DNA of 64,000 nucleotides. Source: Candidatus Collierbacteria bacterium GW2011_GWA2_42_17 (GTDB lineage Bacteria; Patescibacteriota; Microgenomatia; UBA1400; MFAQ01). The position numbers and the translations under genes are program-made. Under the pieces are notes generated by a model, which was not told the origin of the DNA, made no database searches, and was given only the letters and a program-made list of their open reading frames with translations. The stretch is taken from contig LCDA01000002.1 of the NCBI GenBank assembly GCA_000998275.1, positions 46,708 to 110,707 on the forward strand, read 5' to 3'. Within the stretch, counting starts at the first letter, position 1, and the number at the start of each line of letters is the position of its first letter. This document shows, one piece after another, positions 8,208 to 57,412 of this stretch.

Positions 8208-8234
8208 ATTGTACCGTAATAAGGCTTCAAATGC

Positions 8235-8678
8235 CTACTCCGCTATTCTTCCTTTTTCGGTTGTGGTCTGTGATCTATTTATTATTCTTTTTATCCAGGA
8301 CTCTTGCTCCATTTTTTTTCGATCGCTCTTTTCGATCTCCTGTCGTTTCTCCATCATTTTTTCTTCCGCAATCTTTTGATCCAGTACCCGTTTCCTTTGA
8401 ATATACCTAGACAGCTCATCTTTTACCTGTTCAAATCGTCTCTTTTCCGTCTCCTTCATTTCTCCACCAACCCTATTTCTTTCAGCTCCTTTATTTTGTT
8501 CCTTGTCTTCTGTTGCCTGCACCGCTTGACCACGAGACGATGAAATCTGCTCTATCGACTCGTGAGCTATATCTGCCACCGCCCCTGCCGTTCCTTTTAC
8601 GGCACTCTGACCAATCTCGAATAAATTGTCGGCCACGTTTTGACCAACTTGACCTAATACACCGGGCATTACCTTCAT
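8235..8678 (-). CDS. Hypothetical charged/coiled-coil protein (147 aa)
   Basis: ORF rich in K, E and R with heptad-like stretches. No family match. Confidence 0.4.
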   Translation of the reverse strand: MKVMPGVLGQVGQNVADNLFEIGQSAVKGTAGAVADIAHESIEQISSSRGQAVQATEDKEQNKGAERNRVGGEMKETEKRRFEQVKDELSRYIQRKRVLDQKIAEEKMMEKRQEIEKSDRKKMEQESWIKRIINRSQTTTEKGRIAE

Positions 8679-21370: not shown

Positions 21371-22972
21371 ATGGACCGAAAAGAAGCATATCCCTCAGTT
21401 GAGCTGTCCCGATTTAAATCCAGGGTCTCTTTAATTCTTCACTCGACAGCCCCAATTAATACCAGCTCTTTTACTCCGGAACAAATTTCCCTCCTCAACT
21501 CGGCCACCACCATCGTCAGTGCCGCGGCCCGAACTTGTTACTCTTCAGAAATCCAAACTCCTCTTGATTACCTCCAAAAATCAGATAAATATCGTCAGAT
21601 CTCCGATAGTGTCGTCATTAGCACCAAAGAAGCCGGTCACAACACCACACGTCAGCACGCAAGCTACACTTTTGCTCTGGAAAACATCTCTCGATTGGCA
21701 ATAAATTTTCTCCACTCACAACCTTTCTACAACTCCGAAGAAATGTCCCAACGTTACGTCAACATGGCCGACACCAGGTCTCTCACTCCCGACACCGGCA
21801 ACGAAGACCACAACCGCGCCCTCTCTGAAGCAGCCACCTCGCTCAGCACCGCCTACAATCATCTTCAAGAACTCCTCACCCCTACCACCAGGAAATTTAT
21901 TCTTGAACGCTTTCCCGGGCGTGACACCGAGGCTTGGAGAAACAAGATTAACAATGAAGCCGGCAAAAAATCCCAAGAAATTGCCCGCTATCTTCTTCCA
22001 CTTGGTATGCCTACCAATCTTCATTTCACCATCAACGAACTAACTCTCAAACGTCTCTATCATCTCTCGCAAAACCTCCCCATTACCAACGAACTATCCG
22101 CCATTATTCAGGGCATGGTAGACGTAGCCATATCTACCGACCCCTCACTCCAACAGGAGTTAGACAAACCTCTTCCTATTCTGGCTCGTCCAAGATATAA
22201 CCCCAAAAACACTGACCATCACTCTGAAAATATCGCTATTATCGACAACCTATCTCCCATCTCTCCCAACATCACTCGAGCTGTCCGTCACATCCTTGGA
22301 GTCACTTCAGAGGAAATCTCTGATGATGATGCCCTCAAACTTGTTTTCGATCCCAACATTAATCCCTTAATGACCCAAGTTGATGGCGACGGTGTCATTG
22401 ATCATCTTTCCCAAAGTCTTAATCAGGTGAATCTTTCAGTCGAGCTCTCCCTAAGCCATACCGCCAACTACCAACTCCATCGTCATCGCTCTCTTAACCA
22501 CACCACCCCCTTAATCATTCCTCTTCCTCAATCCGAAAGCGACTATGTTATCCCCACCATTCTCGACTCTAATCCTGAAGCTTATGAATTCTTTTTGGAA
22601 ACTCTCGCCCTTCATAGCCAAAAACTCCAAAACCTTTTTGACCAAGGCATTTCCCTCGAACATCTCCAATATCTACTCCCCAACGCCGTTCGTATCCATA
22701 AATCCGTTTCTGGACCTTTTGGAGCCTGGTATCACTTTCTCAAAACCAGAAATTGTTTTAATGCCCAAGAAGAAATCAATGCCATCGCCACCTCAATCAC
22801 CAAACAAATAATCGACATTGACCCGGCTCTCGCTCCCCATCTAGATCATCTCGTCCCTTGCGGTCTTCGCAAAGAATCAAACGTCAAACCATACTGTCCC
22901 GAAGGTGCTCGCTTTTGTGGCGTACGTATCTGGAACCTTTCCGTCAAAGACTATCCCCGGCGTAATATCTAA
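21371..22972 (+). CDS. thyX: Tandem two-domain flavin-dependent thymidylate synthase (ThyX)-like protein
   Basis: Both halves align to the ThyX fold. Half 1: GHNTT..FTF...AI......SQRYV then LPLGMPTNLHFTINELTLKRL. Half 2: LHRHRS.. then LLPNAVRIHKS...FLKTRN...AQEEI. The gene lies next to tmk. 533 aa, against about 220 aa for a single-domain ThyX. Confidence 0.55.
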   Translation: MDRKEAYPSVELSRFKSRVSLILHSTAPINTSSFTPEQISLLNSATTIVSAAARTCYSSEIQTPLDYLQKSDKYRQISDSVVISTKEAGHNTTRQHASYTFALENISRLAINFLHSQPFYNSEEMSQRYVNMADTRSLTPDTGNEDHNRALSEAATSLSTAYNHLQELLTPTTRKFILERFPGRDTEAWRNKINNEAGKKSQEIARYLLPLGMPTNLHFTINELTLKRLYHLSQNLPITNELSAIIQGMVDVAISTDPSLQQELDKPLPILARPRYNPKNTDHHSENIAIIDNLSPISPNITRAVRHILGVTSEEISDDDALKLVFDPNINPLMTQVDGDGVIDHLSQSLNQVNLSVELSLSHTANYQLHRHRSLNHTTPLIIPLPQSESDYVIPTILDSNPEAYEFFLETLALHSQKLQNLFDQGISLEHLQYLLPNAVRIHKSVSGPFGAWYHFLKTRNCFNAQEEINAIATSITKQIIDIDPALAPHLDHLVPCGLRKESNVKPYCPEGARFCGVRIWNLSVKDYPRRNI

Positions 22973-41953: not shown

Positions 41954-44900
41954 TTACAAATTTCCACTTTCACTAGCCGTCTCCGTCGGCGTTATTACTA
42001 CCACTGGCGTTGGCGTAGGCGTCTCTGTTGGACTTGGGGTTGAGCTCAACTCAGTTGTAGGAGTTGGCGTTATGGTAGTTTCCAGTATTGGAGTTGGTTC
42101 AGGTGTTACCGTTTCACTTGGCAGGTCAACAACTCCCCCACTTCCTTCAAACTTGCCTGTTTCATTTACTGCTAGAGCAACCCAGGCAAATCGTAAATCC
42201 ATGCCGACTCCTCTACTCAAACGAATCTTAAAGCCTCTGGTATTTACATCGGCAATAGCATAACCGGGAATGTCGGCAACCGAAGCACCTCCTACAATTT
42301 GCACCGTGGCAGTTACCACTGGTTCGTCTTTATATTCTCTCTCAAACAAAATCTCCACTTGGCTGCCTCCAGTTTTAATCGTGGCAAAACCTGCTGTGTC
42401 TTTATTAAACGTTGGCCTTCCGACAAAGTTTACCTCTCCTCTAAAGATCACTTTGCCCAAAAACTCTACTGTGTTCCTAAACACCTCAGCTATTTTCTTG
42501 GAAATTAGGTCTAATATATCAATCTCACTCGAAGTATCACTTTGTATTTCACCGGCAGCCGTGGCCACTCCTGCTACCCGATCACTCAACAGACTCAGTT
42601 TCCTGGTCAAGATATCCACTCCTTCGATCCTCCCGGCCTTTATCGTATCTGCGTAAAGTATTCCTGAAAAAGTGGCGTCACCCGACACTAGTAGGTCCTG
42701 TGTCACCACTTTTGGAGTTATTATTTCCAGTCCGGCAACCACTCTGTCAGCTATTATGTCGGACATGTTTGCCGAGTCAGTCGCAACTTGATTTTTTTCC
42801 ATAATCAGATTAGTCAGCACCTCATAACCATTAGCTACATCAATTCCCTTCATCACTTCAGTAAGATTACTTCCGGTACTGTTACCATTCTTCACAAAAA
42901 CAATTACGACTCCAACTCCTTCTCCGTCATATCCGGTCATCGCCGTCCCAATTATTGCTCCGGCCTTTGTTGCTCTCATCGCCACCCCAGGAATGGATGA
43001 AGAAGTCAGATAATCTCCGGCCTTGATTTCCCCATTTTCCGCCGACACTTTTACTGGCACCCTTCCCGAAAGAGCTACCAGTACCGGAGTTCCCGATACA
43101 TTTCCGTCACCAAGCACCATTCCCGGTTTTGTCGATACTATTCCCAGTACTGTGGAATCATAAGTCTTTCTGGATTTCTGGACGCCATTCTGAATTGAAC
43201 TGTCAACAGAAACGACGTCTCCTTCAGCTATTGAGCCATCATTCGATGAATACACTTCCGCCAAATCAGCCCCGCCGACCTTGAAAGCTTCCAAGAAGCT
43301 ACCTGCTTTAACCGTCACGTTCGTTCCCACCCCTGCCGTATTTTCGGCAAACTGAAAATTGAAGGTCCCTGCCGTTGCTCCGGTAGTGATAATTCCCTGA
43401 ATCCAGACATCAAAACCTTGACCTGCATCTGAAGCAATATTGTTATTAACCATCTCGGCTGGGGTTGTACAGTCTGTAGTTAATGCTTGTAGAAATACAG
43501 CTCCTACTGACTCAGATCCCGACTGCTGAACACTACAAGTGGTAGCTGCAGGACCAAGAATCGCTGCTTTCCAATCCGGCCCGTTACTGCTTCCGTTAGT
43601 TACAATCAGATGCAGTCTGAACACCCAAGATTCACTGGCCGCCATTGAAAACTGTAAAGCTGTATCATTGGTCAGGGTGGTACTATTGGTCACCGCCTGG
43701 TCAGTAGATTTAGTAATAAACAACTTATCTCCCCCAATACAGTTTGTCCAAGCACCGTTTTGGTAACATCTGAATTTATTAGTACTAGTGTTGTAATAGG
43801 TAGCCCCGTTTGTTCCGATTGGATCGGCCGTTCCGTTATCCAGCACCAACAAATCTGGTGTCGCCGTGGCGCTGTTTCCGATTACTACCCTTCCTGTCGA
43901 CGATGTTGGACCAACCATAAAGTTCACATTTCCAGTTCCGGAATATAAGTTTAAAGCCGTTGCACCAGTTGTATTACCCATCGTTATCGTCTTTGCATTG
44001 GCATTGGTACCAATATTAATTGCTCCGGTTGTTCCCGAGTCGAGTGTCACTGTTCCTGTTGTTCCGGTTGTAAAGGACAGATTTCCGGAAGTACCGGTTA
44101 GTAAAGTAATTCCTCCCGTACCGGAGTTGATGTTGACCGAAGTAGACGTATTAGTATTTCCTAAGGTAATCGCTTTTGCCGAAGCTCCGGTTCCAATATT
44201 TAGAGACATCGCCCCGGTCCCTGTAAATAAATTTGCCGTCCCCGTTTGGGCAGTTCCTCCCATCGTAAAGGTTCCATTCGTCGTCGAAGTTCCGAAAGAA
44301 TACGTTGTTGCCCCTGCTCCATCCAAAATAAAGTTCCCCGTACCCGCATACATATTTAGGGCACCCGTTCCCGTCGCACTACCAATCGTAATTGTTTTTC
44401 CGGTCGCGCTATTACCGATGTTTATCGCCCCGACACCGGAATCGATATTAATCGCCTGAGCCAGTGTCGCGTTTCCAATAGTCACTCCACCAGCCGCCGT
44501 TGTATCAATTATCGGAAATGACCTGGCAAAAATACCCAAAGGTGCCGCCGTCGATGACGGTAATGTCCGAGCATTCAAAATATACTGTGATCCCGCACCA
44601 TTTATTGCCGCCGTCGTCTCCCCAAAAGTAAACGCTGTTTTTACGGCTGTTGTCAAAGCAAAGTTCCAAGCCTGTGCATTGTCGCCATTAGCAATGGTAC
44701 TTCCACCTAAAGCAGCCGAAATTGAATCGAGACTGGTACCACTTGCACTACAAGCCCACGCCGTCCCACTATATTTAAGAATCTCTCCCGATGAACAAGT
44801 TCGAAGTAATGACAAACCGGTACTATTTACTAACCCACCGCCGGTACTTAGTTGAACTGCCGAACCCGATACTTTATTTGCCGTTGTGATTGTTGATAGG

Positions 44901-47275
44901 CTAGTATCAGCAATATTGGAAAGTGTATTCAAACTGGCATCTATTGTTTTATTTGTCAAAGCTATCGCAGTGTCCGTCAAAACGACTTTTGTTCCGGTTC
45001 TGATTCTTGCCACACCACCAGTTTGATCAGTAATCACAAACTCTTCGGACGAAGTTGTCGCCGGTCCGAACTGAAGCGTCGTTACTGCTCCAACCGATGG
45101 AGAACCGTCTGATTCTGCCACGGTCACGGATCCTCCGCCTGTTGAATCCGCACTACATGTCCAACCGGTAGCCGCCGTCCATTTTAGAATTTGATTATCA
45201 CTACAAGTCCTAAGTAGCGACAAACCGGAATCATTCACCAAACCACCATTGGCATTTAATGTCGGTGACCCCGATGTACTATCCGTATTACACACCCAAG
45301 ACGTTCCATTGTATTTAAGGATCTCTCCTGATGCGCAGGTTCTGAGCAAAGACAAGCCAGTACTATCTACTAACCCACCGCCGGTACTTAGTTGAACTGC
45401 TGAACCCGATACTTTATTTGCCGTTGTGATTGTTGCCAAATTGGCATCGGTTATTCCCGCAGTCCCGGATAAATTTGAGTTCGTAAGTCCGGAAATAGTA
45501 TTGGCTCCGGCGGCAATCGTTTTATTTGTTAACGTCCCTGACTCATTCAGAAATACAAAGGTGTCATTCCCCGACAAAGCCGGAATCGTCGCTGTTCTAC
45601 TGGCACTTGGTGCTGTAGAGGAAATCGTTGTCGTATTGGTTGTTCCCAATACCAGCTGATTATTTACCTTGGTCAGTGTAAGTGAATTAAACGTTGGTGT
45701 CGCTGTTGAATCGATATTTTGGATCGTATTCACCGACCCACTAACTACACTAAAGTTTGTTGAGTTATAGTTTGCTACTCCTTTTAATGTTGTTGAGGCG
45801 TCCACTCCGGCAATTGTTACTGTTCCTCCAAGAGATACCGGTGAACCGCTCACCGAAATTCCACTCCCCGGAGAGACAAAGATACTACTGTTGGATAGCT
45901 GGCCATTGGTAATACCCGCAGAGGCCGCTAGATTAGCCGAGGTTAATCCTGAAATAGCTGTGTTCGTTACTCCACTCACTCTCCCGTTTGCGTCGGTCGT
46001 CAACACCGGAATGTCTGTCGCTGTGCCGTAGGTTCCGGCTGTTCCCACGCTGGGTAACACTCCCGCAATATTTATCGTTGTCCCGGACGCAGTTACCGTA
46101 TTTAATCCGCTGCCGGTAATCGTAAGACCCCCGGTTAAACTATTTATACTTGATACTCCCGTCCCCACCCCACTTACCGACTGACACTCCCATGAATCTC
46201 CATCCCAACTCAACACCTGGTCTATCGAACAGCCCGTCAAAAGACTCAAACCCGAGTCATTTGTTAACCCCCCTCCGCCTCTCAACGATACTGCGGCTCC
46301 GGATACTTTATTTGCCTCGGTAATTTGAGCCAGTTTTGCATTAGTTATCTCTCCATCACCAATTTTTCCCGACGTAATTGTCCCATCTGTTATTTTGGCT
46401 CCAGTCACAGCGGAATCAGCCAGTTTGATGGTCGTCACCGCCCCGTCAGCCAACTTCAGAGTTGTTATCGAACCATTTACAATCTGGGCATCACCAACCA
46501 CCCCACTATTGATTATGGCCAATCCGGTCACTGGATCTATCGTAATGGCTCCGGAAACTACCGATGGTGTAGGGGATATTTCTGCCCCTGGAAGAATCAC
46601 CGTCACGGTTTCTTGAGCTTGATCTAACCATTTAAAAACCTCTTTTCCAACAGCTGCAGTAGCTATATCCACCTCCTGCAAAGACGGTGTAATGCTTATA
46701 TTTTCAAAATTACCTCGAGTATCTATCGTACCCAAAATTTGGGAATTATCTTTTAGACTTCGCAGATCCACGTCCCCAACCATCTTACCGCCGTTTATTC
46801 TGCCGTTAATTATTTTTACGGGGAGCGTTGTTCCGTCGGTCAGTGTTATACCAACCACTCCGTGTAACACAATCATGGCGTTCTCTATTACTCGATTATC
46901 GTCATCATAGATATTTACCGTCCCCTTTATTTCCTGGGTCAGTTTTGCCTCACCATTTTGATAAACAAGTTCTGTAAGATCAACGTATTTTTCATTTTGA
47001 ATCTGTGCGTTTTGAACTTTTACAAATGCGTACTCTCCGTTGGTTCGTGCTATTACCAAATATGGCTGATTGCCCAAATTGCTCTCTGACAATACCTCCG
47101 GAGTTACTTCCGAAACAGCCTGAATTGTCACTTGTTTTTCAACAACAGCAGGCTTGATCTTGCCGCCACTAATTGCAAAAACAACCCCTCCCCCAGTAAT
47201 CACAAAAAACAGAATCAAGATAAAACGCACTACCTGATCATATTTATTTCCAGTAATTAGCTGAGAACCTTCCAT
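41954..47275 (-). CDS. Giant (1773 aa) N-terminally anchored repetitive surface protein, tail-fibre/adhesin-like
   Basis: N-terminal TM. Short (I/L)TxxKLADGAVT-type repeats. Four copies of a module ANKVSGSAVQL.TGGGLVxSTGLSLLRTC...ILK(Y/W)...W.C with a conserved Cys pair. Long G/T/S/N-rich beta-like tracts. A C-terminal PT-rich linker. The start codon abuts the stop of the upstream gene. Confidence 0.8.
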   Translation of the reverse strand: MEGSQLITGNKYDQVVRFILILFFVITGGGVVFAISGGKIKPAVVEKQVTIQAVSEVTPEVLSESNLGNQPYLVIARTNGEYAFVKVQNAQIQNEKYVDLTELVYQNGEAKLTQEIKGTVNIYDDDNRVIENAMIVLHGVVGITLTDGTTLPVKIINGRINGGKMVGDVDLRSLKDNSQILGTIDTRGNFENISITPSLQEVDIATAAVGKEVFKWLDQAQETVTVILPGAEISPTPSVVSGAITIDPVTGLAIINSGVVGDAQIVNGSITTLKLADGAVTTIKLADSAVTGAKITDGTITSGKIGDGEITNAKLAQITEANKVSGAAVSLRGGGGLTNDSGLSLLTGCSIDQVLSWDGDSWECQSVSGVGTGVSSINSLTGGLTITGSGLNTVTASGTTINIAGVLPSVGTAGTYGTATDIPVLTTDANGRVSGVTNTAISGLTSANLAASAGITNGQLSNSSIFVSPGSGISVSGSPVSLGGTVTIAGVDASTTLKGVANYNSTNFSVVSGSVNTIQNIDSTATPTFNSLTLTKVNNQLVLGTTNTTTISSTAPSASRTATIPALSGNDTFVFLNESGTLTNKTIAAGANTISGLTNSNLSGTAGITDANLATITTANKVSGSAVQLSTGGGLVDSTGLSLLRTCASGEILKYNGTSWVCNTDSTSGSPTLNANGGLVNDSGLSLLRTCSDNQILKWTAATGWTCSADSTGGGSVTVAESDGSPSVGAVTTLQFGPATTSSEEFVITDQTGGVARIRTGTKVVLTDTAIALTNKTIDASLNTLSNIADTSLSTITTANKVSGSAVQLSTGGGLVNSTGLSLLRTCSSGEILKYSGTAWACSASGTSLDSISAALGGSTIANGDNAQAWNFALTTAVKTAFTFGETTAAINGAGSQYILNARTLPSSTAAPLGIFARSFPIIDTTAAGGVTIGNATLAQAINIDSGVGAINIGNSATGKTITIGSATGTGALNMYAGTGNFILDGAGATTYSFGTSTTNGTFTMGGTAQTGTANLFTGTGAMSLNIGTGASAKAITLGNTNTSTSVNINSGTGGITLLTGTSGNLSFTTGTTGTVTLDSGTTGAINIGTNANAKTITMGNTTGATALNLYSGTGNVNFMVGPTSSTGRVVIGNSATATPDLLVLDNGTADPIGTNGATYYNTSTNKFRCYQNGAWTNCIGGDKLFITKSTDQAVTNSTTLTNDTALQFSMAASESWVFRLHLIVTNGSSNGPDWKAAILGPAATTCSVQQSGSESVGAVFLQALTTDCTTPAEMVNNNIASDAGQGFDVWIQGIITTGATAGTFNFQFAENTAGVGTNVTVKAGSFLEAFKVGGADLAEVYSSNDGSIAEGDVVSVDSSIQNGVQKSRKTYDSTVLGIVSTKPGMVLGDGNVSGTPVLVALSGRVPVKVSAENGEIKAGDYLTSSSIPGVAMRATKAGAIIGTAMTGYDGEGVGVVIVFVKNGNSTGSNLTEVMKGIDVANGYEVLTNLIMEKNQVATDSANMSDIIADRVVAGLEIITPKVVTQDLLVSGDATFSGILYADTIKAGRIEGVDILTRKLSLLSDRVAGVATAAGEIQSDTSSEIDILDLISKKIAEVFRNTVEFLGKVIFRGEVNFVGRPTFNKDTAGFATIKTGGSQVEILFEREYKDEPVVTATVQIVGGASVADIPGYAIADVNTRGFKIRLSRGVGMDLRFAWVALAVNETGKFEGSGGVVDLPSETVTPEPTPILETTITPTPTTELSSTPSPTETPTPTPVVVITPTETASESGNL
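44767..45436. repeat. Two near-identical (2-3 mismatches) intragenic direct repeats of about 130 bp, 540 bp apart, inside the giant gene
   Basis: 44767..44896 against 45307..45436, compared by eye. They correspond to module copies 2 and 4. More diverged copies lie at about 45180-45260 and 46180-46330. Confidence 0.85.
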
Positions 47276-47277
47276 TT

Positions 47278-49263
47278 CTATTTTTCCCCCATCCTTCTCG
47301 TGGTCTTAATAAAAATAATAGAGGTCAGCATCACAATCCCTATGATTAGAAATAATATAAGCAACCAAGTTAACCACGATAGGTTCACATCAAGCACTTT
47401 TTGAACCGGCTCGGAAACAATAACCGTCAATCCATACTTCGAAAGCTTACTTGATCCGAATAAGGAATGTAGTCCTCTCCAGTTATATCCCTCCATATTT
47501 ACCGCGTTTGTTTTCCATAGATCGTAACTACCGTCAGCCTCATTCACCACTACCCCCAGTCTGTCGGCATTAGGGTGTACTACCATTTTTCCTCCCTCCC
47601 CAACCACAACGACTTCCTGTCCCAATGTACTATCACCTACCCTCTGGAGTTCACTTGATAGATTTACTCCTGAAACAGCCACAAATAAAACACCCGATAC
47701 CACATTTTTTGTGTTGACTGTCGGAACGGCAATCAAGAAAACGTCATCAACTCCCTCAATTAAATTTTCTAAGGCCATCGAAACATATGTTTTCCCAGTG
47801 TTTAGTGTTGAGTTAAAAAACTCAGCACCTGCAAAACTAGACGAGTTAAACATTGCCGAGGTTGGATAAGAGGCGATCGGTTCCCCATCTGCCTCAATTA
47901 CACCAGCGATAGCCACATCGGTTCTTCCTAAAGATAAAAACTTCAACTGGTCTGCAAGCTCTTTACTTTGCGAACGAACAAAGGCCTTAATAAACACTTC
48001 ATTCTTTGATAAATCAGTCACTCCTTGTGTCAAACCATCGATGGTTCTTGATAACTCCACCCTGGCAAAATCGGCCTTTTCAGAAAGTCCTCGGTTTGCA
48101 TTACTGATTAAAGTTCCCTGAACCACAGCAATCATCAAAATCACCAATATGAAGCACATGAGAACTGAACCAAAAACTTTAAACACCAAGGTGCGCTCTG
48201 AAACCAACCTGGCCTTAAACGAGTCCCAGGATGGCAAAACCATACCTATTAAACCTGCGATTAGAGTCGCAAAGAACCTTGACCAATAATTCTCTATACC
48301 GTAATAGAGTGCCAAACTACAAAGTATCAATCCATAAGCAAACGAAATACTCTTCAGAAATCTCTTGTTCCAAAAAAATCCATAAAGACCGAAGGCAATC
48401 AGTACCAATATTAACAGGCTTAAAAGCCATCCTAAACCACCAAATACCGACTTTAATCCCAAAGTTACTACTGACAGGTCTGAGCCGTCAGGAAAAAAGT
48501 TTAAAGCAATAAACACACTAATTAGTAATCCAAAAATATATAGCATATACAAAGTTGAAGACTCAACTTCGCTCAAAGCCTCAATCAAAATCACCAAACC
48601 AAACAAGCCGTGAATCAAAAAACCGTCAATGTCTCCTCCTGAAAACAAAACTACCGCTAACCCCAAAAAGGTAGCCCCCAAAAAATATCGGAAAATATTT
48701 GTCAGGTTCACTGTACGTCCAACCTCTTCTTGAATCATCGAAGCTAGAATCAAACCAAACCCTCCAAATATCATTCCCAAACGAACTGGATTTAACCAAA
48801 GAGACAGTCTTCCTAGGGATAAAACATCCTGTTGGTTAGAGTACAAAAACAGAGACATTCCCAAAACAATAGATGTCAGGCTTATTAACCAGTCAAACAG
48901 CGTCGGAAATCCTACTCTTTCCACCAACCACAGTCTCATCGTATGCAAAAAAGACTCTCCACTCAGATCCGACAGACTTTTTCCTGGTCTCGGTGTTGGT
49001 AATAATGCGCTAGGTAATACATCTTGTTGTGATAATATCGCTACTCCTTCTTTTTTACTCGTGGTAGGTTTTTCTTTGGACTCGATTATTTCTCCTTCAC
49101 CCTTGTTGCCTTCAAACTTCTTAATTTCCAGCTCTGGAATTCTAAATTTTCCCTTACCGATTCTGACGGAATTTATCAAACCCTCTTTCAAAAAACCATA
49201 GATGCTATTTGTTGAGTAACCAAGAATCTTGGCGGTCTCTGAAACCGAGTATGTTTTCTTCAT
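47278..49263 (-). CDS. Membrane protein with an N-terminal excisionase/MerR-like HTH, about 10 TM helices, a C-terminal extracytoplasmic Cache-like domain and a final TM (661 aa)
   Basis: N-terminus MKKTYSVSETAKILGYSTNSIYGFLKEGLINSVRIGKGKFRIP (HTH_17-like). A long hydrophobic core. The C-terminal soluble region resembles a Cache/sensor domain, followed by WLTWLLILFLIIGIVMLTSIIFI. Confidence 0.65.
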   Translation of the reverse strand: MKKTYSVSETAKILGYSTNSIYGFLKEGLINSVRIGKGKFRIPELEIKKFEGNKGEGEIIESKEKPTTSKKEGVAILSQQDVLPSALLPTPRPGKSLSDLSGESFLHTMRLWLVERVGFPTLFDWLISLTSIVLGMSLFLYSNQQDVLSLGRLSLWLNPVRLGMIFGGFGLILASMIQEEVGRTVNLTNIFRYFLGATFLGLAVVLFSGGDIDGFLIHGLFGLVILIEALSEVESSTLYMLYIFGLLISVFIALNFFPDGSDLSVVTLGLKSVFGGLGWLLSLLILVLIAFGLYGFFWNKRFLKSISFAYGLILCSLALYYGIENYWSRFFATLIAGLIGMVLPSWDSFKARLVSERTLVFKVFGSVLMCFILVILMIAVVQGTLISNANRGLSEKADFARVELSRTIDGLTQGVTDLSKNEVFIKAFVRSQSKELADQLKFLSLGRTDVAIAGVIEADGEPIASYPTSAMFNSSSFAGAEFFNSTLNTGKTYVSMALENLIEGVDDVFLIAVPTVNTKNVVSGVLFVAVSGVNLSSELQRVGDSTLGQEVVVVGEGGKMVVHPNADRLGVVVNEADGSYDLWKTNAVNMEGYNWRGLHSLFGSSKLSKYGLTVIVSEPVQKVLDVNLSWLTWLLILFLIIGIVMLTSIIFIKTTRRMGEK

Positions 49264-49727: not shown

Positions 49728-50285
49728 ATGTCATACTGGATATGCTACGAAAACTTGGACCGAACAAGCGGTCATTCGGGTATTCGAGGTCGGGATAATC
49801 TAGAAAGTAAATCCGTGTCTCGACGAAAAGATAGTGTAAAAGAATACCGAAAAAACCCCAACAAGCGGATCATCGCAGAAGGAATTACTCACGATGAGGC
49901 TCTGAACTTAATGGCCCTCACGCCGGAAATCTGTCGACTAACCACCACCGTCGATGATATCTTCGGTCAGTTCAACAGGATTGATAAAGAAACTAAAAAC
50001 GTTATCTCCTTCCTGTTCGACGCCTACGAACAAATCATCGAAGATCGAAAACTCAAAGAAAAAGCCGGTATTACTCCGACAGGAAACTATCTTGATGTTT
50101 TTGTCGATGTCCACTCGGGCAATACGGGGAAATATCTCATCTTTCGCAAGATGAACACTCTTTTTGATGTCCTTCCGGACGGAACCATCGTCGATCTCAA
50201 AGAAGCCATTTTGGCTTTAGGTAAGGAAATCATGGCTGTCGCCCTTGAAAATCAAATTACCATCTGGAATGAAGAAAATAACTAG
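49728..50285 (+). CDS. Hypothetical protein, paralog A (185 aa)
   Basis: Homologous to 50507..51016 (MSYW/MSYY start; IIAEGITHDEALNLMALTPEICRLTTTVDDI against VIAEGISEGKSYQIIQLTPEICLLTAAIEKI). Followed by a terminator. Confidence 0.55.
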   Translation: MSYWICYENLDRTSGHSGIRGRDNLESKSVSRRKDSVKEYRKNPNKRIIAEGITHDEALNLMALTPEICRLTTTVDDIFGQFNRIDKETKNVISFLFDAYEQIIEDRKLKEKAGITPTGNYLDVFVDVHSGNTGKYLIFRKMNTLFDVLPDGTIVDLKEAILALGKEIMAVALENQITIWNEENN

Positions 50286-50506: not shown

Positions 50507-51016
50507 ATGTCATATTACGTTGTCTTTGAGTACACAACCAAAGCCGGAGGATACGCAGGGATACGAACAGCGATTGATTACCAAAACAAGGAGAATTTTA
50601 CTCTCCTCAACCCTACTTTAAACGGCCTATCTACAGTCATTGCTGAGGGTATATCAGAAGGAAAGTCCTACCAAATAATTCAACTCACCCCAGAAATATG
50701 TCTTCTAACGGCTGCTATCGAAAAAATTGATCTCGCCACCAATGGCAGTTTCAACTTTGATAAAAGTCACGGTTTTCTACGAGAAGCATGGGAAACAATC
50801 TACAACAATCGTTTGAATAACAAGGCTGACGGTCTTGTTGTAAAACCTGACTTTCAAGTGGTTGAACCCACTCAAGAATATTCCAATAAAAACCATCTCA
50901 TGATATTTGTCAAAAACAAATTTACCAACACCGACGGGTCAATTGACGATAATCTTCAAATCGCTATCATGGACATTGAAGGTGAAATATACAAAATGAC
51001 TGAAACAAAGCACTAG
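50507..51016 (+). CDS. Hypothetical protein, paralog B (169 aa)
   Basis: RBS ggagaaaatcATG. Paralogous to 49728..50285. Confidence 0.55.
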   Translation: MSYYVVFEYTTKAGGYAGIRTAIDYQNKENFTLLNPTLNGLSTVIAEGISEGKSYQIIQLTPEICLLTAAIEKIDLATNGSFNFDKSHGFLREAWETIYNNRLNNKADGLVVKPDFQVVEPTQEYSNKNHLMIFVKNKFTNTDGSIDDNLQIAIMDIEGEIYKMTETKH

Positions 51017-51939: not shown

Positions 51940-52860
51940 ATGATCGAGTCCTTATTCTTCACCTCCTCAGACGATTCAAATCTGGCTCAAAACATCATTG
52001 CTACCGTTCCCCTTCTACGCCAAGGGAGGTATCGCTTTGGTCACTTTATTGATGGCGAAGTCATGTTCTATCTCGACGAACCGGTCAAGGGCAAGCGCTG
52101 TTTTGTCCTTGGACATACCGGACCTCCCGCCGACAACCTCCTCTCCATGTTTACCATCGTCAACACCCTCAAGCTCAACGGTGCTAAATCCATAGTTTCG
52201 GTCATCCCCTATCTCGGTTACGCCAGATCCGACCGTGACAAACCCCTACAACCTATAAACTCCAGACTGTTTGCTGGTTTCCTCAAACAGGCTGGTGCTT
52301 CCAAAGTCATCTGCCTTGATCTTCATAGCGAACTAAACAAAAGACACTTTACCATCCCCATCACCCATCTCTCTGCTCTACCTCTCATGGCTGACATCTA
52401 TCAATCATTGAGTATTCCCAACTTGACCATTGCCACTCCGGATCTCGGTGGTTTGAATCGTGCCAAACTTTTTGCCAAAGCTATGGGGATCAAAGACATC
52501 GTTGTCATCGAAAAATATCGTCCCTCCGTCCAAAGCGCTGTCTCTTTAAAAATTACAGGCGACGTTAACAATAAAAATGTCATTCTGGTAGATGACATGA
52601 TTCAAACGGGTGGTACTCTTCTCGCCGCCGCCAATCTTCTACGATCTAGAGGAGCCAAAGATCTCTACGTCGCCGTCACTCACTGCATCTATCAGAGTAA
52701 AGGTATCAATCTACTAACTTCTACATCACTTTTTAAGAAAATCCTCATCACTAACTCTCAAGAACCAATCGAAAAACTTCCCCCTAAAGTCTATATTCTC
52801 GACATCTCTCCGCTCCTCTCCAAAGCTATTGCCCGTATCACCTCTTCGTCCGTTACCTGA
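51940..52860 (+). CDS. prs: Ribose-phosphate pyrophosphokinase (PRPP synthetase)
   Basis: Motifs YLGYARSDRD (consensus YxGYARQDRK) and the PRPP-binding VILVDDMIQTGGTL. Confidence 0.85.
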   Translation: MIESLFFTSSDDSNLAQNIIATVPLLRQGRYRFGHFIDGEVMFYLDEPVKGKRCFVLGHTGPPADNLLSMFTIVNTLKLNGAKSIVSVIPYLGYARSDRDKPLQPINSRLFAGFLKQAGASKVICLDLHSELNKRHFTIPITHLSALPLMADIYQSLSIPNLTIATPDLGGLNRAKLFAKAMGIKDIVVIEKYRPSVQSAVSLKITGDVNNKNVILVDDMIQTGGTLLAAANLLRSRGAKDLYVAVTHCIYQSKGINLLTSTSLFKKILITNSQEPIEKLPPKVYILDISPLLSKAIARITSSSVT

Positions 52861-53435
52861 GGAAAGTTTCTATAATATGCCCCTACTGCTCCTCGATAAT
52901 CCTTATCGATATTCAAACAAACTATCTCCTCCACCACTCCTTTAAGTTTTTCTTCAAACTCCGCTGGCATCATTGGCAAAGCTGCAATGATTTTATGTGG
53001 GTTTTTACTTCGCAGTTCTTCAATGGCCATCAAGTAAGTCAATCCCGTGGCCACTCCATCATCAACCAAAATTACCGTTTTCCCTTTAACACTCAGATCT
53101 TTCCTTCCCCGAAGATACAGCTTCTCTCTCCTTTCAATCTCCTGTTTTTCTCTCTCCACCTCTTTCTTTAACCAATTTTGATCAAGTCGGTTCTTTTCCT
53201 CCTCCGTACACCGTAACCCGCTCTTGGAAACCGCACAGACCGCATACTCCCTGTTATAAGGATGTCCGATCTTCCGCACCAATACAAGCCCCAAGGGAAA
53301 CTTTAACTCACGGGCAATTACCTCCGCCAAAATCACTCCGCCACGAGGGATCGCCACTAAAACACAGTCTTCTTTTTGAAACTTTACCAAGCTCAAGGCC
53401 AATCTTTTACCAGCATCTACCCTGTCGTCAAACAT
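52791..53435 (-). CDS. Type I phosphoribosyltransferase-domain protein
   Basis: PRPP-binding motif VILVDDGVATGLT. 214 aa. Its 3' end overlaps prs by 70 nt; the genes are convergent. Confidence 0.7.
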   Translation of the reverse strand: MFDDRVDAGKRLALSLVKFQKEDCVLVAIPRGGVILAEVIARELKFPLGLVLVRKIGHPYNREYAVCAVSKSGLRCTEEEKNRLDQNWLKKEVEREKQEIERREKLYLRGRKDLSVKGKTVILVDDGVATGLTYLMAIEELRSKNPHKIIAALPMMPAEFEEKLKGVVEEIVCLNIDKDYRGAVGAYYRNFPQVTDEEVIRAIALERSGEMSRI

Positions 53436-53470: not shown

Positions 53471-54715
53471 TCAAAGCTCCGTCATCCCCAACGCCTCCGG
53501 TATACGCACGTTTTTCGGTACCACCACAAACATTAATCTTTTTTCATAAACATACTTTTTGCTGCCATCTGGCAGCTTATCTACCCTGTCATCCCACCAA
53601 CGATTCAAGAACTGCTGAATCATATAAACTCGATCTTCCGCGTGATAATGACCGTATGGGTCCATCATTCGGATACTATCGTTTGCCCTATCCACATCCG
53701 TAACCACGCAGTAATGTCCGCTGTCACCTTTGCACATTTCCTCTTCATCTTCCATCTCTTCCCCTTCCTCGTCCGGATAGTCCTCATACGAATCACTCCC
53801 AAAAATTCCCTGCCAATCAACACCCACCGGATAGTTGTAAACACGTACCATCTGCTCGATGTCAAACAGGCTGGCATCTCGTTTCGCCCAAAGACGCATC
53901 CCGGGATAAGAATTTTTCACTGCCGTGGCCAAGAGCTCGATCGACATCCCGTTTTTTAAGGCTAATTCTCTTGTCGTTGCCGACTCGACCAGCTTATCCT
54001 GACTGGTCTCAATACCGTAATGCGACAACAAGATTTGCAAAGTAGCTGGACCACAAAAAGCCGGGTTCTCTTGACGAACTCTCGGTAAACTATCGATTGT
54101 CATTTTTTTCTCCAGCACCTCTTCCACTACCACTTCCTTGTCCATTACCAGATCTCTCTCCCACAAACCGTTATTTTCCAAATCAAAACCTCTAATCATC
54201 TTGAATCCTGCCTTCTCGGCCACCTTGATTGAGGGAATATTTCCGCTTTCAATCTCCGCCAACACTTTCAAACCATCCATCATCCACGGTTTCTTCTCCT
54301 GGAGGTATTCAAATACTAGCTTGCAACCAATTTCTATTGCTGGAGTAATCAAACCAGCCGGTGCTCCAGGACGCTTAGCATAGCTCATTTCCAACCTCCC
54401 CTGAACTATCTTTGATGGATAAAAATAAATAAAGCCGTGAACCCGACGATTAGCCACCTCTTCCGGCAAGTCGGCAATGGCAAACAAAAATGTATTTCCC
54501 TCACCTTTTTCGTCCATCCACTTTTGGTAATTCCAAATATTCAGGTTATCGACATTGTCCATCCATCTTTGCACCTCGGAACTCTCCACTATCTGGATCA
54601 GATCCCGCAAGTCACGACTGTCTTCACACTCAAAAAAGCGGACTACATAACCCTTTCCATCCTTCATAAAATACTTTTTGTCGCGATTCTCCATAACCCT
54701 GATTTTACCAAACAA
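53471..54715 (-). CDS. Fusion protein: an N-terminal GNAT-like domain plus a C-terminal papain-like C39_2-type peptidase domain (414 aa)
   Basis: The N-terminal about 200 aa are paralogous to 55911..56591 (GNAT-like). The C-terminus carries NPAFCGPATLQILLSHYG (a C39-like catalytic Cys context) and DSGHYCVV (candidate His), then an acidic linker. Confidence 0.55.
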   Translation of the reverse strand: MFGKIRVMENRDKKYFMKDGKGYVVRFFECEDSRDLRDLIQIVESSEVQRWMDNVDNLNIWNYQKWMDEKGEGNTFLFAIADLPEEVANRRVHGFIYFYPSKIVQGRLEMSYAKRPGAPAGLITPAIEIGCKLVFEYLQEKKPWMMDGLKVLAEIESGNIPSIKVAEKAGFKMIRGFDLENNGLWERDLVMDKEVVVEEVLEKKMTIDSLPRVRQENPAFCGPATLQILLSHYGIETSQDKLVESATTRELALKNGMSIELLATAVKNSYPGMRLWAKRDASLFDIEQMVRVYNYPVGVDWQGIFGSDSYEDYPDEEGEEMEDEEEMCKGDSGHYCVVTDVDRANDSIRMMDPYGHYHAEDRVYMIQQFLNRWWDDRVDKLPDGSKKYVYEKRLMFVVVPKNVRIPEALGMTEL

Positions 54716-54735
54716 TCGTCCCCTACCCGATCTGA

Positions 54736-55878
54736 CTAGATTGTTCTGGCGTATTTCGACAGTAAACTGGCCAAGACCTCATCAAAACTGATTCCATACA
54801 TCGCGAGCACCTCGGTAAATGGCAAGCCCATATCCGGACCAAAGGCTGTGTTCGGATTTGAGTCGGTGAAATATGGAATATTTGTCTCGGAATCCACACG
54901 CACATCAAACTTAGCATAGTCCTTGTGTTGCAAGCCACGGAAGGCACGAATTGCCAGTTGAGAAATTTTACTGGCCAAAGGTTCTTCCACACTTTTGTAG
55001 GTATAGGCTTTGATATCATCGTAAGACTCAAAGCTGGTGAAATAATGCTTTCCGTCCGTCTTTTTCCTAAATACTTTTTGGCCCATAAAAACACTCTTTT
55101 TTGCCCCGTCATCAAATACCACCACTGTTACCTCCGGTCCATCAATAAATTGTTCCACAATAACCGGGATCTTATACGTCGACACCATCTTATTCACCTT
55201 CCTCTGAGCGTCCTTAATCGTTTCCTTGACCGCATGGTTATCGATGCCTACACTTCCGCCACTTTCATTTAACTTGACAATTAAAGGCAGTCCCAAGTCA
55301 TCACGAATTGCCGTGTTTGATCTACGAATGAACTGAAACGCCGGAGTAGGAATGCCGTAGGCCATCAAAAGTCTCTTGGTCAAATTTCGATTATTTCCGA
55401 TCACCATCCCCTCCATACCGGCACCGGTATAGGGCAAGTTGGACAACTCCAAAGCTGCTGGTACCGATGTCTGCAGTCGATCCATCCCTTTTAGGGTGTC
55501 CACCAGGTTCAAAACTAACGAAGGCTTATCCACTAAAAGGTTAGTCAAGAAATATGGATCACCAGGTAGAGTTTTAACCTGGACACCCATTTTCTCAATC
55601 CTCTCGGCGACCTCTTTGGCTCTGTCTTCCACTTCCACCTCGGCATAATAAGCCTCTTCTGTCGGGAACATCTCTCTTTCAACGTGAGAATATGCCACTA
55701 CCACAAGACCAAGATTCTTTAGAGCCTCTTTGTCGACTCGAAGTCTTGGTTTTTTATGTGCTTTAGGTGTGATTGACTCCTGTTTTTCCTCTGACTTTAC
55801 CTCTTGCTCGTGAAGTTCTGCCTCTTTTAGTTGCCGTTCTTTCTTTTTTATTCCCAACAAATCTTTTATTCCAATCAT
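54736..55878 (-). CDS. ddl: D-alanine--D-alanine ligase-family ATP-grasp enzyme
   Basis: ATP-grasp motifs LIVKLNESGGSVG and YFTDSNPNTAFGPDMGLPF (Ddl C-terminal region). 380 aa with an N-terminal charged extension of about 45 aa. Confidence 0.7.
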   Translation of the reverse strand: MIGIKDLLGIKKKERQLKEAELHEQEVKSEEKQESITPKAHKKPRLRVDKEALKNLGLVVVAYSHVEREMFPTEEAYYAEVEVEDRAKEVAERIEKMGVQVKTLPGDPYFLTNLLVDKPSLVLNLVDTLKGMDRLQTSVPAALELSNLPYTGAGMEGMVIGNNRNLTKRLLMAYGIPTPAFQFIRRSNTAIRDDLGLPLIVKLNESGGSVGIDNHAVKETIKDAQRKVNKMVSTYKIPVIVEQFIDGPEVTVVVFDDGAKKSVFMGQKVFRKKTDGKHYFTSFESYDDIKAYTYKSVEEPLASKISQLAIRAFRGLQHKDYAKFDVRVDSETNIPYFTDSNPNTAFGPDMGLPFTEVLAMYGISFDEVLASLLSKYARTI

Positions 55879-55910
55879 GAATTCAGCTTAGCATTTTCCC
55901 CTGACTAAAA

Positions 55911-56591
55911 TCAACCGTTAATTTTCTTCTTTTCGATATCTCTAAGCTTTTTGTAATCCAAAACGTACAAGGCGCTCATCTCTTTTGAATCTTCTTCATA
56001 AAAATGTCGGCCCCTTCTCTCAAAACCACATGCCTCTACTACCCTCATTGAACCAATATTACTCTCGTCAATAAAACAAAAGACAAATACCCCCGTTCCC
56101 CCTTTGATCCTATCAAGTCTTTTTAGCTCTAAACAGGCTTGTCTCACCGCACTGGATATCTGTCCGCCAGGAGCCTTTGGTAGCTTGGCAAAACTAATCT
56201 CAAAAATTTTATTATCATTAACCTCGTTCTTTTTAATTAAACCCGCTCTCACGATCCTGTTAATGATTTTCTTCTCTTCACTGCCTGCATAAAGATATAC
56301 AAACCCCTGAACCTCCCCAATCTCACTGGCTTGATCTTCTCCAAAAATCTTGTCCGTGCCCGACACCGCAAATAGGTAATATCGTCCATAAGCTCCTTTT
56401 TCATCCGCCCATTCATAACGATCTTTTTTAGACATCCCGGCCACACTATCCATCATCTCTTGCACCTCACGGTGATCGACAATCTTCCTCAGTCGCAACA
56501 TATCTTCTTTACGTCCGGAATCAAAAAATCTAATTTCTACCTTCTCACCTGGGTATTTTTTTAGTTTTAGGTCATTTTTATTCATCTCCAC
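55911..56591 (-). CDS. GNAT-family acetyltransferase-like protein; paralog of the N-terminal domain of 53471..54715
   Basis: Collinear similarity: EIRFFDSGRKEDMLRLRKIVDHREVQEMMDSV against VVRFFECEDSRDLRDLIQIVESSEVQRWMDNV, GFVYLYAG against GFIYFYPS, AKLPKAPGG against AKRPGAPAG. Confidence 0.55.
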   Translation of the reverse strand: MEMNKNDLKLKKYPGEKVEIRFFDSGRKEDMLRLRKIVDHREVQEMMDSVAGMSKKDRYEWADEKGAYGRYYLFAVSGTDKIFGEDQASEIGEVQGFVYLYAGSEEKKIINRIVRAGLIKKNEVNDNKIFEISFAKLPKAPGGQISSAVRQACLELKRLDRIKGGTGVFVFCFIDESNIGSMRVVEACGFERRGRHFYEEDSKEMSALYVLDYKKLRDIEKKKING

Positions 56592-56689
56592 ACTAGATTA
56601 TCACATCCGCTAAACATTTTGCGCTTGCTTAATTCGAAAACCAATATACAATTCACCACAAGCACTCTAAAAATCTAAAAGGAGGTAAC

Positions 56690-57412
56690 ATGGCCGTCCA
56701 TTTTCTTGCTTCTTTTCTTGACAAAGCTTCCGGTCTCTTTAGTAAGAAGTCTCTGCCGTCGACAATCGAACTCTACGACCCCATTACTGTTAGTCGACCC
56801 GATGTCGAGTTTCGAGTTCTCTCCTCTCTCGCTAAACAAAATGTCTATTTCATCGACCTGGACACGACAAACTACATCGACGGACTGATCTATCTGCCTT
56901 CTCTCGGTTTGACGCTTACTCCCCCTCCCCCTCAAAAAGCCGCTCGCAGTAATTTGGGTTTCTTAAATCTGGAAACCAAACGGGAAACAAGCTCTCCCTC
57001 CAACCCGAACGTAGCCGAGGTTGATGCTGTTTTGTACTTCGAGTATGAGGGTCGGGAATGCAAAACAGGCTTACTTGATAACGGACTTGCTTACCTGTTC
57101 TTTGTCAAAATCTGGAATGACCTTGACTTCATCATCTGGGAAAAAATCCTCGAAGAAGTTGTCAGGGATCTAACTCTTGATTTTGAAGGGTATCTTCTTC
57201 CCAGGGTAAACTTCACGGTAGCCACCACCTTTATTCCCCACAAACCCTCAGAGCCCAGTAAGTTAATAATCAATCGTCAAGACGACAACTCCGACGCCTC
57301 ATTTGCCGTATCCAACCACACGATTGGCACCCTGGAAAACAGTGACGGGTTTGACGACGATGACGACGATGAAGAATACGAAGAATTAAAAAAACCTAAA
57401 CCCCGACACTAA
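56690..57412 (+). CDS. Hypothetical protein with a poly-Asp/Glu C-terminal tail (240 aa)
   Basis: RBS aaaaggaggtaacATG and the C-terminal DDDDDDEEYEELKK. No family match. Confidence 0.5.
   Translation: MAVHFLASFLDKASGLFSKKSLPSTIELYDPITVSRPDVEFRVLSSLAKQNVYFIDLDTTNYIDGLIYLPSLGLTLTPPPPQKAARSNLGFLNLETKRETSSPSNPNVAEVDAVLYFEYEGRECKTGLLDNGLAYLFFVKIWNDLDFIIWEKILEEVVRDLTLDFEGYLLPRVNFTVATTFIPHKPSEPSKLIINRQDDNSDASFAVSNHTIGTLENSDGFDDDDDDEEYEELKKPKPRH

Follow-up and report, generated by a model that had tools for sequence, protein, structure and literature searches.

A conserved ATP-grasp ligase and C39_2 peptidase pair in Microgenomates, joined by acetyltransferase-like domains in Collierbacteria

Introduction

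ATP-grasp amidoligases linked to peptidases or transacylases are a known theme. In glutathionylspermidine synthetase/amidase (GspSA), for example, the product of an ATP-grasp-type amide synthetase is the substrate of a papain-like cysteine amidase coupled to it, both activities being cytoplasmic, and microviridin clusters contain enzymes of the ATP-grasp, C39 and GNAT types. In the closthioamide pathway, the ATP-grasp enzyme CtaD works with the papain-like transacylase CtaG, and a survey of CtaD found a gene encoding a peptidyl carrier protein (PCP) in 95% of loci (PMC7183216). Fusions of a GNAT domain to a papain-like peptidase of the DUF3335 (PF11814) family have been noted as recurrent, the papain-like domain being of the same structural cluster as C39_2 (PMC10318531). 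Here, we analyzed a 64-kb stretch of DNA from Candidatus Collierbacteria bacterium GW2011_GWA2_42_17 (the window, i.e., all 64,000 nucleotides), a Collierbacteria-type member of the Microgenomates (OP11), which are ultra-small bacteria of the Candidate Phyla Radiation (CPR). Our subject is a three-gene locus on the minus strand of this window, encoding a GNAT-like protein of 226 amino acids (aa), then a 380-aa ATP-grasp ligase of the D-alanine-D-alanine ligase (Ddl) family, and then a 414-aa protein in which a GNAT domain is fused to a Peptidase_C39_2 domain.

Results

The ATP-grasp gene and the C39_2 gene form the conserved unit

Scanning a single genome for each species, we identified 99 loci and retained 80; in 77, enough downstream sequence was available for the gene following the ligase to be assessed. 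A C39_2 gene is located on the same strand within 200 bp downstream of the ATP-grasp gene in 63 of these 77 loci, often with the two open reading frames (ORFs) overlapping, and within 1 kb downstream in 3 further loci. Among the records with an informative label (about half of the loci, the others having generic or clearly mistaken bin labels), the lineages are all Microgenomates/Patescibacteria, i.e., Collier-, Shapiro-, Woese-, Gottesman-, Roizman- and Cerribacteria. Identity of the ATP-grasp protein in these loci to that of the window is 64-92%.

When we clustered every ORF in the neighbourhood, no other widely conserved partner of the pair emerged. Neither a carrier protein gene (PCP or acyl carrier protein) nor any mur or dcw gene is among its conserved neighbours, no ABC transporter is encoded near the pair in any of the 80 loci, and a search for conserved small ORFs around the pair in the same 80 loci returned nothing except antisense shadows and rpmG. 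The conserved unit is an ATP-grasp gene followed by a C39_2 gene, with the other flanking genes varying from locus to locus. An earlier note on this stretch, made from the sequence alone, had placed the duplicated GNAT domain at the centre of the locus; co-occurrence instead ties the ATP-grasp gene to the C39_2 gene, with the GNAT as an accessory. The doubt that the same note expressed about prs, the phosphoribosyltransferase (PRTase) gene, and the NUDIX, tsaC and CofD/YvcK-like genes as parts of the module was well placed, since none is a conserved neighbour; a functional role for these genes was rejected, as they are missing from homologous loci.

Organization of the locus

The two GNAT paralogs bracket the ATP-grasp gene, just as the earlier note described the three minus-strand ORFs, and the genes are tightly packed, with 32 bp between the GNAT-like and ATP-grasp genes and 20 bp between the ATP-grasp and fusion genes. 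The features of the locus are as follows:

54736-55878, minus strand: ATP-grasp ligase, 380 aa, a non-canonical subfamily of the Ddl family and the conserved core of the module (PF07478 match and residue mapping)
55708-55878, minus strand: N-terminal extension of the ligase, approximately residues 1-57 (alignments)
53471-54715, minus strand: fusion protein, 414 aa, GNAT plus Peptidase_C39_2, TTG start (Pfam)
53474-54103, minus strand: C39_2 papain-like domain of the fusion, approximately residues 205-414, ortholog of free-standing peptidases
54053-54073, minus strand: codons from Gln215 (putative oxyanion hole) to Cys221 (putative nucleophile), in RQENPAFCGPA, invariant in the homolog alignment
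53660-53716, minus strand: codons from His334 (in GHY) to Asp352 (in DPYG), the predicted remainder of the catalytic triad (family conservation)
53720-53806, minus strand: acidic loop of poor order (residues 304-332) that immediately precedes the catalytic His (composition and model confidence)
54152-54676, minus strand: GNAT domain of the fusion (type A), approximately residues 14-188 (PF13302 and Foldseek)
55911-56591, minus strand: GNAT-like protein, 226 aa, GTG start, a diverged (type B) paralog of the fusion N-terminal domain
56643-56671, minus strand: promoter-like site upstream of the first gene (weak; 9 of 12 matches in a consensus scan)

Gene calls on identical contigs and the alignment of homologs lead us to prefer other start codons for two of these genes, the likely true starts being the ATG at 56585 for the 226-aa gene and the ATG at 54694 for the fusion. 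Promoter-like sites across the region are no more numerous than expected from shuffled sequence in the consensus scan; the position of the one listed is compatible with a single transcription unit of three genes, although the match is weak. A protein identical to the 414-aa fusion is encoded on contigs of GCA_000995475.1, GCA_000994325.1 and several groundwater metagenome assemblies. No signal peptide or membrane segment was found in any of the three proteins.

The ligase is a separate subfamily of the Ddl family

A Pfam search with the 380-aa protein returned Dala_Dala_lig_C (PF07478) with 73.3 bits (cut-off 24) and did not detect Dala_Dala_lig_N. It failed both NCBIfam models for Ddl, scoring 103 bits against a cut-off of 243 (PRK01372) and 94.5 against 245.65 (TIGR01205), and its closest match among solved structures is Ddl (E = 4e-16). 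The earlier assignment to the Ddl family is upheld by the C-terminal domain. Homologs are common (1457 matches at E<1e-10; identity is 70% or higher for each of the 120 best), and the protein is 64-94% identical across Microgenomates.

We mapped residues by alignment to E. coli DdlB, whose sequence was checked against PDB 2dln. The residues that contact ATP and Mg are kept and are invariant in the family (DdlB residue first: K144=K202, E180=E242, E187=E249, D257=D325, E270=D339 and N272=N341), and with this site intact the ligase looks catalytically competent. The residues of the D-Ala site and its loops are altered, with S150 replaced by G208, the K215/Y216 motif absent, R255 replaced by K323, S281 variable and L282 replaced by G351; E15 of DdlB is kept as E67 in the subfamily to which the window protein belongs. 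An invariant Asp (D349) lies in the acceptor loop, and AYSHVERE, DGKH[YF]FTSxESYDD and NPNTAFGPD are motifs of the family. In the N-terminal extension, a short conserved GIKDLLG motif precedes a Lys/Glu-rich spacer that differs in length between homologs, with 15 Lys and Arg and 11 Asp and Glu in 57 residues; canonical Ddl lacks this extension.

Canonical Ddl is present in relatives. Two Shapirobacteria contigs (L037 and L038 in our scan) carry both the non-canonical pair and a canonical Ddl, encoded on the minus strand at 1074-1979 in L037 (282 aa) and at 3838-4701 in L038 (approximately 285 aa), 1.3-2.4 kb from the pair. Both proteins are compact and contain every DdlB active-site residue. 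The L037 protein reaches 345 bits, which shows that the low score of the window protein is not a mere effect of CPR divergence. Canonical Ddl proteins are also named from Woesebacteria. The earlier note had allowed that the window gene might be its genome's only ordinary ddl. In these two Shapirobacteria the ligase of the pair is not the only Ddl-like protein, as a canonical Ddl is encoded on the same contig; in the window itself there is no second Ddl-like ORF within 64 kb, and a query with the Shapirobacteria Ddl followed by a look-up of cluster names returned named matches from Shapirobacteria and Woesebacteria and none that could be assigned to Collierbacteria. Taken together, the scores below cut-off, the replaced D-Ala-site residues and the coexistence with canonical Ddl in relatives argue that the ATP-grasp protein is not an ordinary Ddl, and we place it in a separate subfamily of the Ddl family on these sequence grounds.

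The C39_2 peptidase has an intact catalytic site

The C-terminal domain of the fusion matches Peptidase_C39_2 (PF13529) over residues 210-354 with 30.6 bits (cut-off 24), in agreement with the earlier domain call, and Peptidase_C39 (PF03412) with 27.3 bits (cut-off 22). It is the ortholog of the free-standing peptidases of 187-230 aa that follow the ATP-grasp gene in other Microgenomates. The NPAFCGPATLQILLSHYG and GHY motifs singled out in the earlier note contain the catalytic Cys221 and His334, which are conserved in homologs: in 20 homologs of the fusion Gln215, Cys221 and His334 are invariant and position 352 is Asp or Asn, and in 70 domains of the wider family Cys221 is present in 100%, His334 in 99%, Gln215 in 97% and Asp352 in 96% (the rest having Asn). 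With this Gln/Cys/His/Asp site intact, the peptidase looks active. Further charged residues (R212, K278, D361, R362, R372 and D375) are invariant in the same 70 sequences, and all members have an acidic loop before the catalytic His, with a median of 15 aa and about 50% Asp/Glu (n = 70), varying in length and sequence and disordered in the models, where its predicted local distance difference test score (pLDDT) is <50.

Since Foldseek searches with the full-length fusion were swamped by GNAT matches, we modelled the peptidase domain separately (pLDDT 85.8). The model matches the pseudomurein isopeptidase PeiR (score 15.8), the leader peptidases PCAT1 and ComA (15.5), the phytochelatin-synthase-like Alr0975 of Nostoc (13.7) and the transacylase CtaG (12.4), and the domain is predicted to have a papain-like C39 fold, similar to those of C39 peptidases, phytochelatin synthase and PeiR. 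Alr0975 is also the top sequence-profile match among solved structures, marginally so (E = 0.009). The peptidase has no match to the Pfam Phytochelatin family, and did not class as a phytochelatin synthase (C83).

The GNAT domains are probably a later addition

The N-terminal domain of the fusion matches Acetyltransf_3 (PF13302) over residues 33-172 with 42.1 bits (cut-off 25.4); the 226-aa protein scores 18.5 bits against the same model, so that the earlier proposal of GNAT domains is confirmed by profile for the fusion and falls below the cut-off for the 226-aa protein taken alone. The proposed paralogy of the two is clear: BLASTP aligns them over 176 residues with 32% identity (E = 7e-19), and the alignment includes the blocks quoted in the earlier note (GFIYFY/GFVYLY and AKRPGAPAG/AKLPKAPGG). 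The AlphaFold2 model of the fusion (mean pLDDT 81) contains two folded domains and a disordered linker at residues 192-203. A Foldseek search with this model confirms a GNAT fold for the N-terminal domain, the top matches being RimJ/RimL-type, PAT, SpeG and other GNATs (E from 2e-7 to 1e-5, the top at ~1e-7; target TM-score up to 0.79), among them ribosomal-protein acetyltransferases. Compared with the canonical acyl-CoA pyrophosphate-binding loop, Q/R-x-x-G-x-G/A, both paralogs appear to have a conserved, atypical AK[RL]PxAPxG loop at the expected location, followed by an N..S....EK.GF motif.

The fusion protein is rare, with 28 homolog clusters among 5.8 billion proteins, and GNAT genes beside the pair are confined to Collierbacteria-like loci and one Cerribacteria locus. 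In most of the Collierbacteria-like loci (L010 and L022-L032), a GNAT of 164-194 aa lies upstream (from adjacent to about 2.5 kb away) and the peptidase downstream is free-standing; this GNAT is the ortholog of the fusion N-terminal domain (the 178-aa GNAT of L010, L010_GNAT178, is 49% identical). Fusion of GNAT to C39_2 occurs only in the small Collierbacteria subclade of the window (L014-L019, L006 and L008). Of these, the window, L006 and L014-L018 have the diverged 226-aa copy immediately before the ATP-grasp gene; L008 and L019, which also carry the fusion, have a GNAT of 193-198 aa located 1-3 kb upstream instead. In the Cerribacteria locus (L076), a GNAT of the type B found in the 226-aa protein lies between the ATP-grasp gene and the C39 peptidase gene. 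The GNAT is a lineage-specific accessory that was probably added to the pair later, and this distribution suggests an order of events in which the ligase-peptidase pair probably came first, followed by gain of a GNAT and then by GNAT duplication and fusion.

Variants of the pair

In one 2.2-kb contig from the Joint Genome Institute (P0271), a single 524-aa gene call holds an ATP-grasp domain, 56% identical to that of the window, in frame with a C39_2 domain. Approximately 11 of the 77 loci have no C39_2 gene. Four of these (L056, L064, L065 and L070) encode a C45 AAT-family N-terminal nucleophile (NTN) hydrolase two genes downstream, and in another four (L021, 1616-2491; L059, 5052-6371; L062, 5586-6836; L081, 4999-6282) a protein of about 420-440 aa directly follows the ATP-grasp gene in place of C39_2. 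This protein has no Pfam match, and the motifs GCQ[ST]L and HTEED are conserved in it; an S66 LD-carboxypeptidase comes after it in L081. Other amidohydrolases may therefore replace the peptidase in loci without C39_2.

Approximately 11 Woesebacteria-type loci contain a second, different Ddl-like ATP-grasp protein of about 340 aa directly after the peptidase (L049 at 7623-8645, L051, L059, L069, L072, L074, L082, L083, L086, L088 and L092), which scores 181 bits against the Ddl cut-off of 243 and has the motifs GDARESQIP and ELKWVYED. In P0319, a relative of this second ATP-grasp type shares one protein with a lysine-2,3-aminomutase-like radical SAM domain. In addition, a sister ATP-grasp family, 33-41% identical and without the counterpart of DdlB E15, is present in Aenigmarchaeota and Dojkabacteria; a metagenome scan showed that it often has a second ATP-grasp nearby and no consistent peptidase partner.

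Neighbouring genes and other observations in the window

A 240-aa ORF (56690-57412, plus strand) with an Asp/Glu-rich C-terminus and no Pfam match is transcribed divergently from the operon. It is kept beside the operon in L006, L014, L015, L016 and L018, with 32% identity to the 202-aa protein of L006, and in view of this conservation it may share the promoter region. PADLOC defence models gave zero matches for the three operon proteins and this neighbour, and an anti-phage defence system was rejected as a candidate on that basis. On the other side of the operon, the PRTase gene (52791-53435, minus strand) lies 35 bp downstream of the fusion gene and is absent from more distant homologous loci; it is convergent with prs (51940-52860, plus strand), and their 3′ ends overlap by 70 bp (52791-52860).

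Further away, two tandem paralogous ORFs (49728-50285 and 50507-51016, plus strand) encode proteins of 185 and 169 aa that align with 29% identity (BLASTP E = 2e-13) and belong to no Pfam family; a 172-aa homolog is encoded near the operon in L006 (3911-4429). A 1773-aa ORF without a Pfam match (41954-47275, minus strand) follows a 661-aa membrane protein with HTH_17 and dCache_1 domains (47278-49263, minus strand). Versions of this tandem recur downstream of the operon: a giant ORF accompanies the full HTH_17 and dCache_1 protein in L001 and a protein with HTH_17 only in L006, and in L008 the two lie on opposite strands, about 2 kb apart. A ThyX protein of 533 aa (21371-22972, plus strand) has two stretches matching Thy1 and is about twice the usual ThyX length, and may be a tandem duplication. 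All 2-kb bins of the window (1-64000) have a strongly negative GC skew, from -0.11 to -0.37, and the two strands thus differ greatly in G and C regardless of gene orientation. This agrees with a G/C disparity that has been published for whole chromosomes of Collierbacteria and of related Microgenomates (PMC7143001).

Discussion

Proposed function of the module

We tentatively propose that an amide bond of a small, peptide-like compound of non-ribosomal origin is formed by the module and afterwards cleaved or transferred, and that Collierbacteria have gained an N-acylation step. Adjacency that is strict and independent of context, together with an occasional fusion, argues for a common pathway of ligase and peptidase, and a cytoplasmic location is argued by the lack of signal peptides and membrane segments in the three proteins. 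The ligase would activate a carboxylate as an acyl-phosphate and join to it an amine other than D-alanine, yielding a small peptide-like compound. The C39_2 enzyme would then attack the bond made by the ligase, or that of a precursor, via a thioacyl-enzyme intermediate that might either be hydrolysed, following the logic of GspSA, or be transferred to an acceptor, as by phytochelatin synthase or by BtrH/CtaG. In Collierbacteria, the RimJ/RimL-type GNATs, one free-standing and one fused to the peptidase, would add an N-acylation step, which could cap a free amine of the product or intermediate, and the fusion could couple cleavage or transfer to acylation on one polypeptide. We infer that the two enzymes act on one compound, and likewise in which direction the peptidase step runs and what kind of substrate is used. 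A basic or amine-rich substrate is hinted at by the acidic loop in the peptidase and by Asp349, which is invariant in the acceptor loop of the ligase.

Several points weigh against this proposal. Adjacency is linkage and not proof of action on the same bond, and a ligase and a hydrolase acting on one bond would run a futile cycle unless regulated. The joined gene call of P0271 may reflect either a real fusion or a frameshift artefact at the point where the two genes usually overlap. The loci without a C39_2 gene, which have unrelated genes nearby, argue that the ligase can function without this peptidase, and in the sister ATP-grasp family a C39 gene is a neighbour in 4 of 80 loci and adjacent to the ligase in 3. 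The hint of a basic substrate comes from composition alone.

Alternative explanations

The explanation closest to the cell wall is that the pair is a peptidoglycan variant module, with the ATP-grasp enzyme making an alternative stem-peptide end or cross-bridge in the manner of VanA or D-aspartate ligases, and the peptidase trimming the competing precursor (VanX-like) or salvaging amino acids from muropeptides. Ddl is the closest family both by sequence and among solved structures, the organism encodes a penicillin-binding protein transpeptidase (within the window), and cell-wall-related genes do occur near the pair, i.e., the S66 LD-carboxypeptidase downstream of the ligase in L081, canonical ddl in L037 and L038, and VanW and beta-lactamase-like genes in L013. 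Each of these neighbours is, however, seen in a single locus or a few loci, and no mur or dcw gene is conserved beside the pair; the D-Ala-site residues of the ligase are replaced, and the peptidase is predicted to be cytoplasmic and is not of the NlpC/P60 or VanX type, so we consider such a module unlikely. We regard as rather improbable a second explanation, modification of a protein tail, in which the ATP-grasp enzyme adds residues to a protein as RimK does to S6, the C39_2 enzyme erases them and the protein so modified is also acetylated by the RimJ/RimL-type GNAT. Conservation of the ligase reaches a level typical of housekeeping genes, the GNAT belongs to the RimJ/RimL-like Acetyltransf_3 family with ribosomal-protein acetyltransferases among its structural matches, the acidic loop could bind a basic protein, and rpmG, encoding L33, adjoins the pair in 13 loci. 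The rpmG adjacency is nevertheless limited to one clade and lies on the opposite strand, and no gene for a candidate target is conserved nearby; the ATP-grasp protein is Ddl-like rather than RimK- or TTL-like, and the many invariant charged residues of the peptidase suit a small ligand better.

A ribosomal peptide of the graspetide or microviridin kind would have its precursor cross-linked by the ATP-grasp enzyme, its double-glycine leader removed by the C39 enzyme and its new N-terminus acetylated by the GNAT. C39 leader peptidases are among the top structural matches of the peptidase domain, and the three enzyme types together are those of microviridin clusters. Against this, no conserved small ORF was found around the pair in the 80 loci beyond the antisense shadows and rpmG, the intergenic gaps in the window measure just 20-35 bp, no ABC transporter is encoded at the loci, Ddl is the closest ATP-grasp match, and the pair is found widely among genomes of only about 1 Mb, in surroundings that vary. 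With neither precursor ORF nor transporter, we rejected the leader-peptidase reading, and its probability is minimal. The search for small precursor-peptide ORFs suggested by the earlier note thus came back empty, and the ribosomal version of its "small peptide or cell-wall-precursor tailoring unit" is left unsupported; peptide tailoring around an amide-forming ligase is still the best reading, and a cell-wall role is neither shown nor excluded. It is likewise very improbable that the gene is an ordinary ddl with chance GNAT and peptidase neighbours. Public records do annotate it as D-alanine-D-alanine ligase, and we located no other Ddl-like ORF in the window and no canonical ddl for Collierbacteria; yet C39_2 adjacency extends over 63 of 77 species, the score of 103 bits compares with a cut-off of 243 and with 345 for a true Microgenomates Ddl, the D-Ala-binding residues are lost, and the pair shares a contig with canonical Ddl in L037 and L038. 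We rejected this candidate on the scores, the active-site residues and that coexistence.

Significance

With genomes of about 1 Mb, Microgenomates do not grow in culture on their own; the retention of the pair across many orders despite such small genomes argues that it probably serves a need of these bacteria. Returning to our proposal of a small, peptide-like product, a bolder form of it, which we hold to be possible but doubtful, is that the pair represents an undescribed housekeeping pathway across many Microgenomates orders that builds or remodels a new small amide-linked metabolite or tag (e.g., a conjugate of an amino acid with a polyamine, a conjugate of a basic peptide, or a cell-wall precursor of an unusual kind), with the peptidase slot refilled independently by unrelated amidohydrolases and GNAT capping added twice. 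If true, both the enzyme subfamily beside Ddl and the class of product made by these ultra-small symbiotic bacteria would be new.

The public label of "D-alanine-D-alanine ligase" is probably wrong across many CPR genomes, which affects reconstructions of cell-wall synthesis in these bacteria. The pair is compact, comprising two soluble proteins that are sometimes one polypeptide, and is amenable to expression and assay; knowing what it makes could bring to light a new small molecule, or a new modification of the cell wall or of a protein, in this large and uncultured lineage. With a GNAT that was gained, duplicated and fused in steps, the operon is also a clear example of growth by accretion. 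Our literature searches returned no description of an ATP-grasp/C39_2 pair. The ligase subfamily and its wide distribution over Microgenomates orders seem to be undescribed, as do the accretion and fusion of the GNAT.

Comparison with known systems

By sequence, the nearest described enzymes are those of the Ddl/VanA family, whose ATP and Mg residues the window ligase keeps, and from which it differs by its extra N-terminal tail, an insertion of about 11 residues and the lack of a detectable Ddl N-terminal domain. On the peptidase side, described C39 and C39_2 enzymes include ComA, PCAT1, LahT and the B. anthracis protein 3erv; the window-type enzyme has neither a fused nor a neighbouring ABC transporter and no gene for a double-glycine substrate, is predicted to be cytoplasmic, is stand-alone or fused to GNAT, and has a family-specific acidic loop before the His. 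The recurrent GNAT-DUF3335 fusions differ in that the window peptidase matches PF13529 and not PF11814, and in that its fusion is tied to a Ddl-like ATP-grasp protein. Alr0975 of Nostoc is a marginal sequence match, and we found no evidence of glutathione metabolism at the window's locus; phytochelatin synthase, which acts on the product of glutathione synthetase, is a precedent in logic for a ligase followed by a cysteine enzyme.

The closthioamide and butirosin pathways (CtaD/BtrJ with CtaG/BtrH) follow the same logic of an ATP-grasp enzyme and a papain-like transacylase, but window-type loci have no carrier protein, and a thiotemplated pathway of the CtaD/CtaG kind was rejected for want of a carrier protein gene. 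The amidase of GspSA is a CHAP domain and its synthetase belongs to another ATP-grasp lineage, and neither is matched by the window proteins; the likeness is in the coupling of a synthetase to an amidase, two activities that P0271 likewise joins in one gene call. By analogy with these systems, the Microgenomates pair appears to fit the theme of ATP-grasp amidoligases that are linked to peptidases or transacylases.

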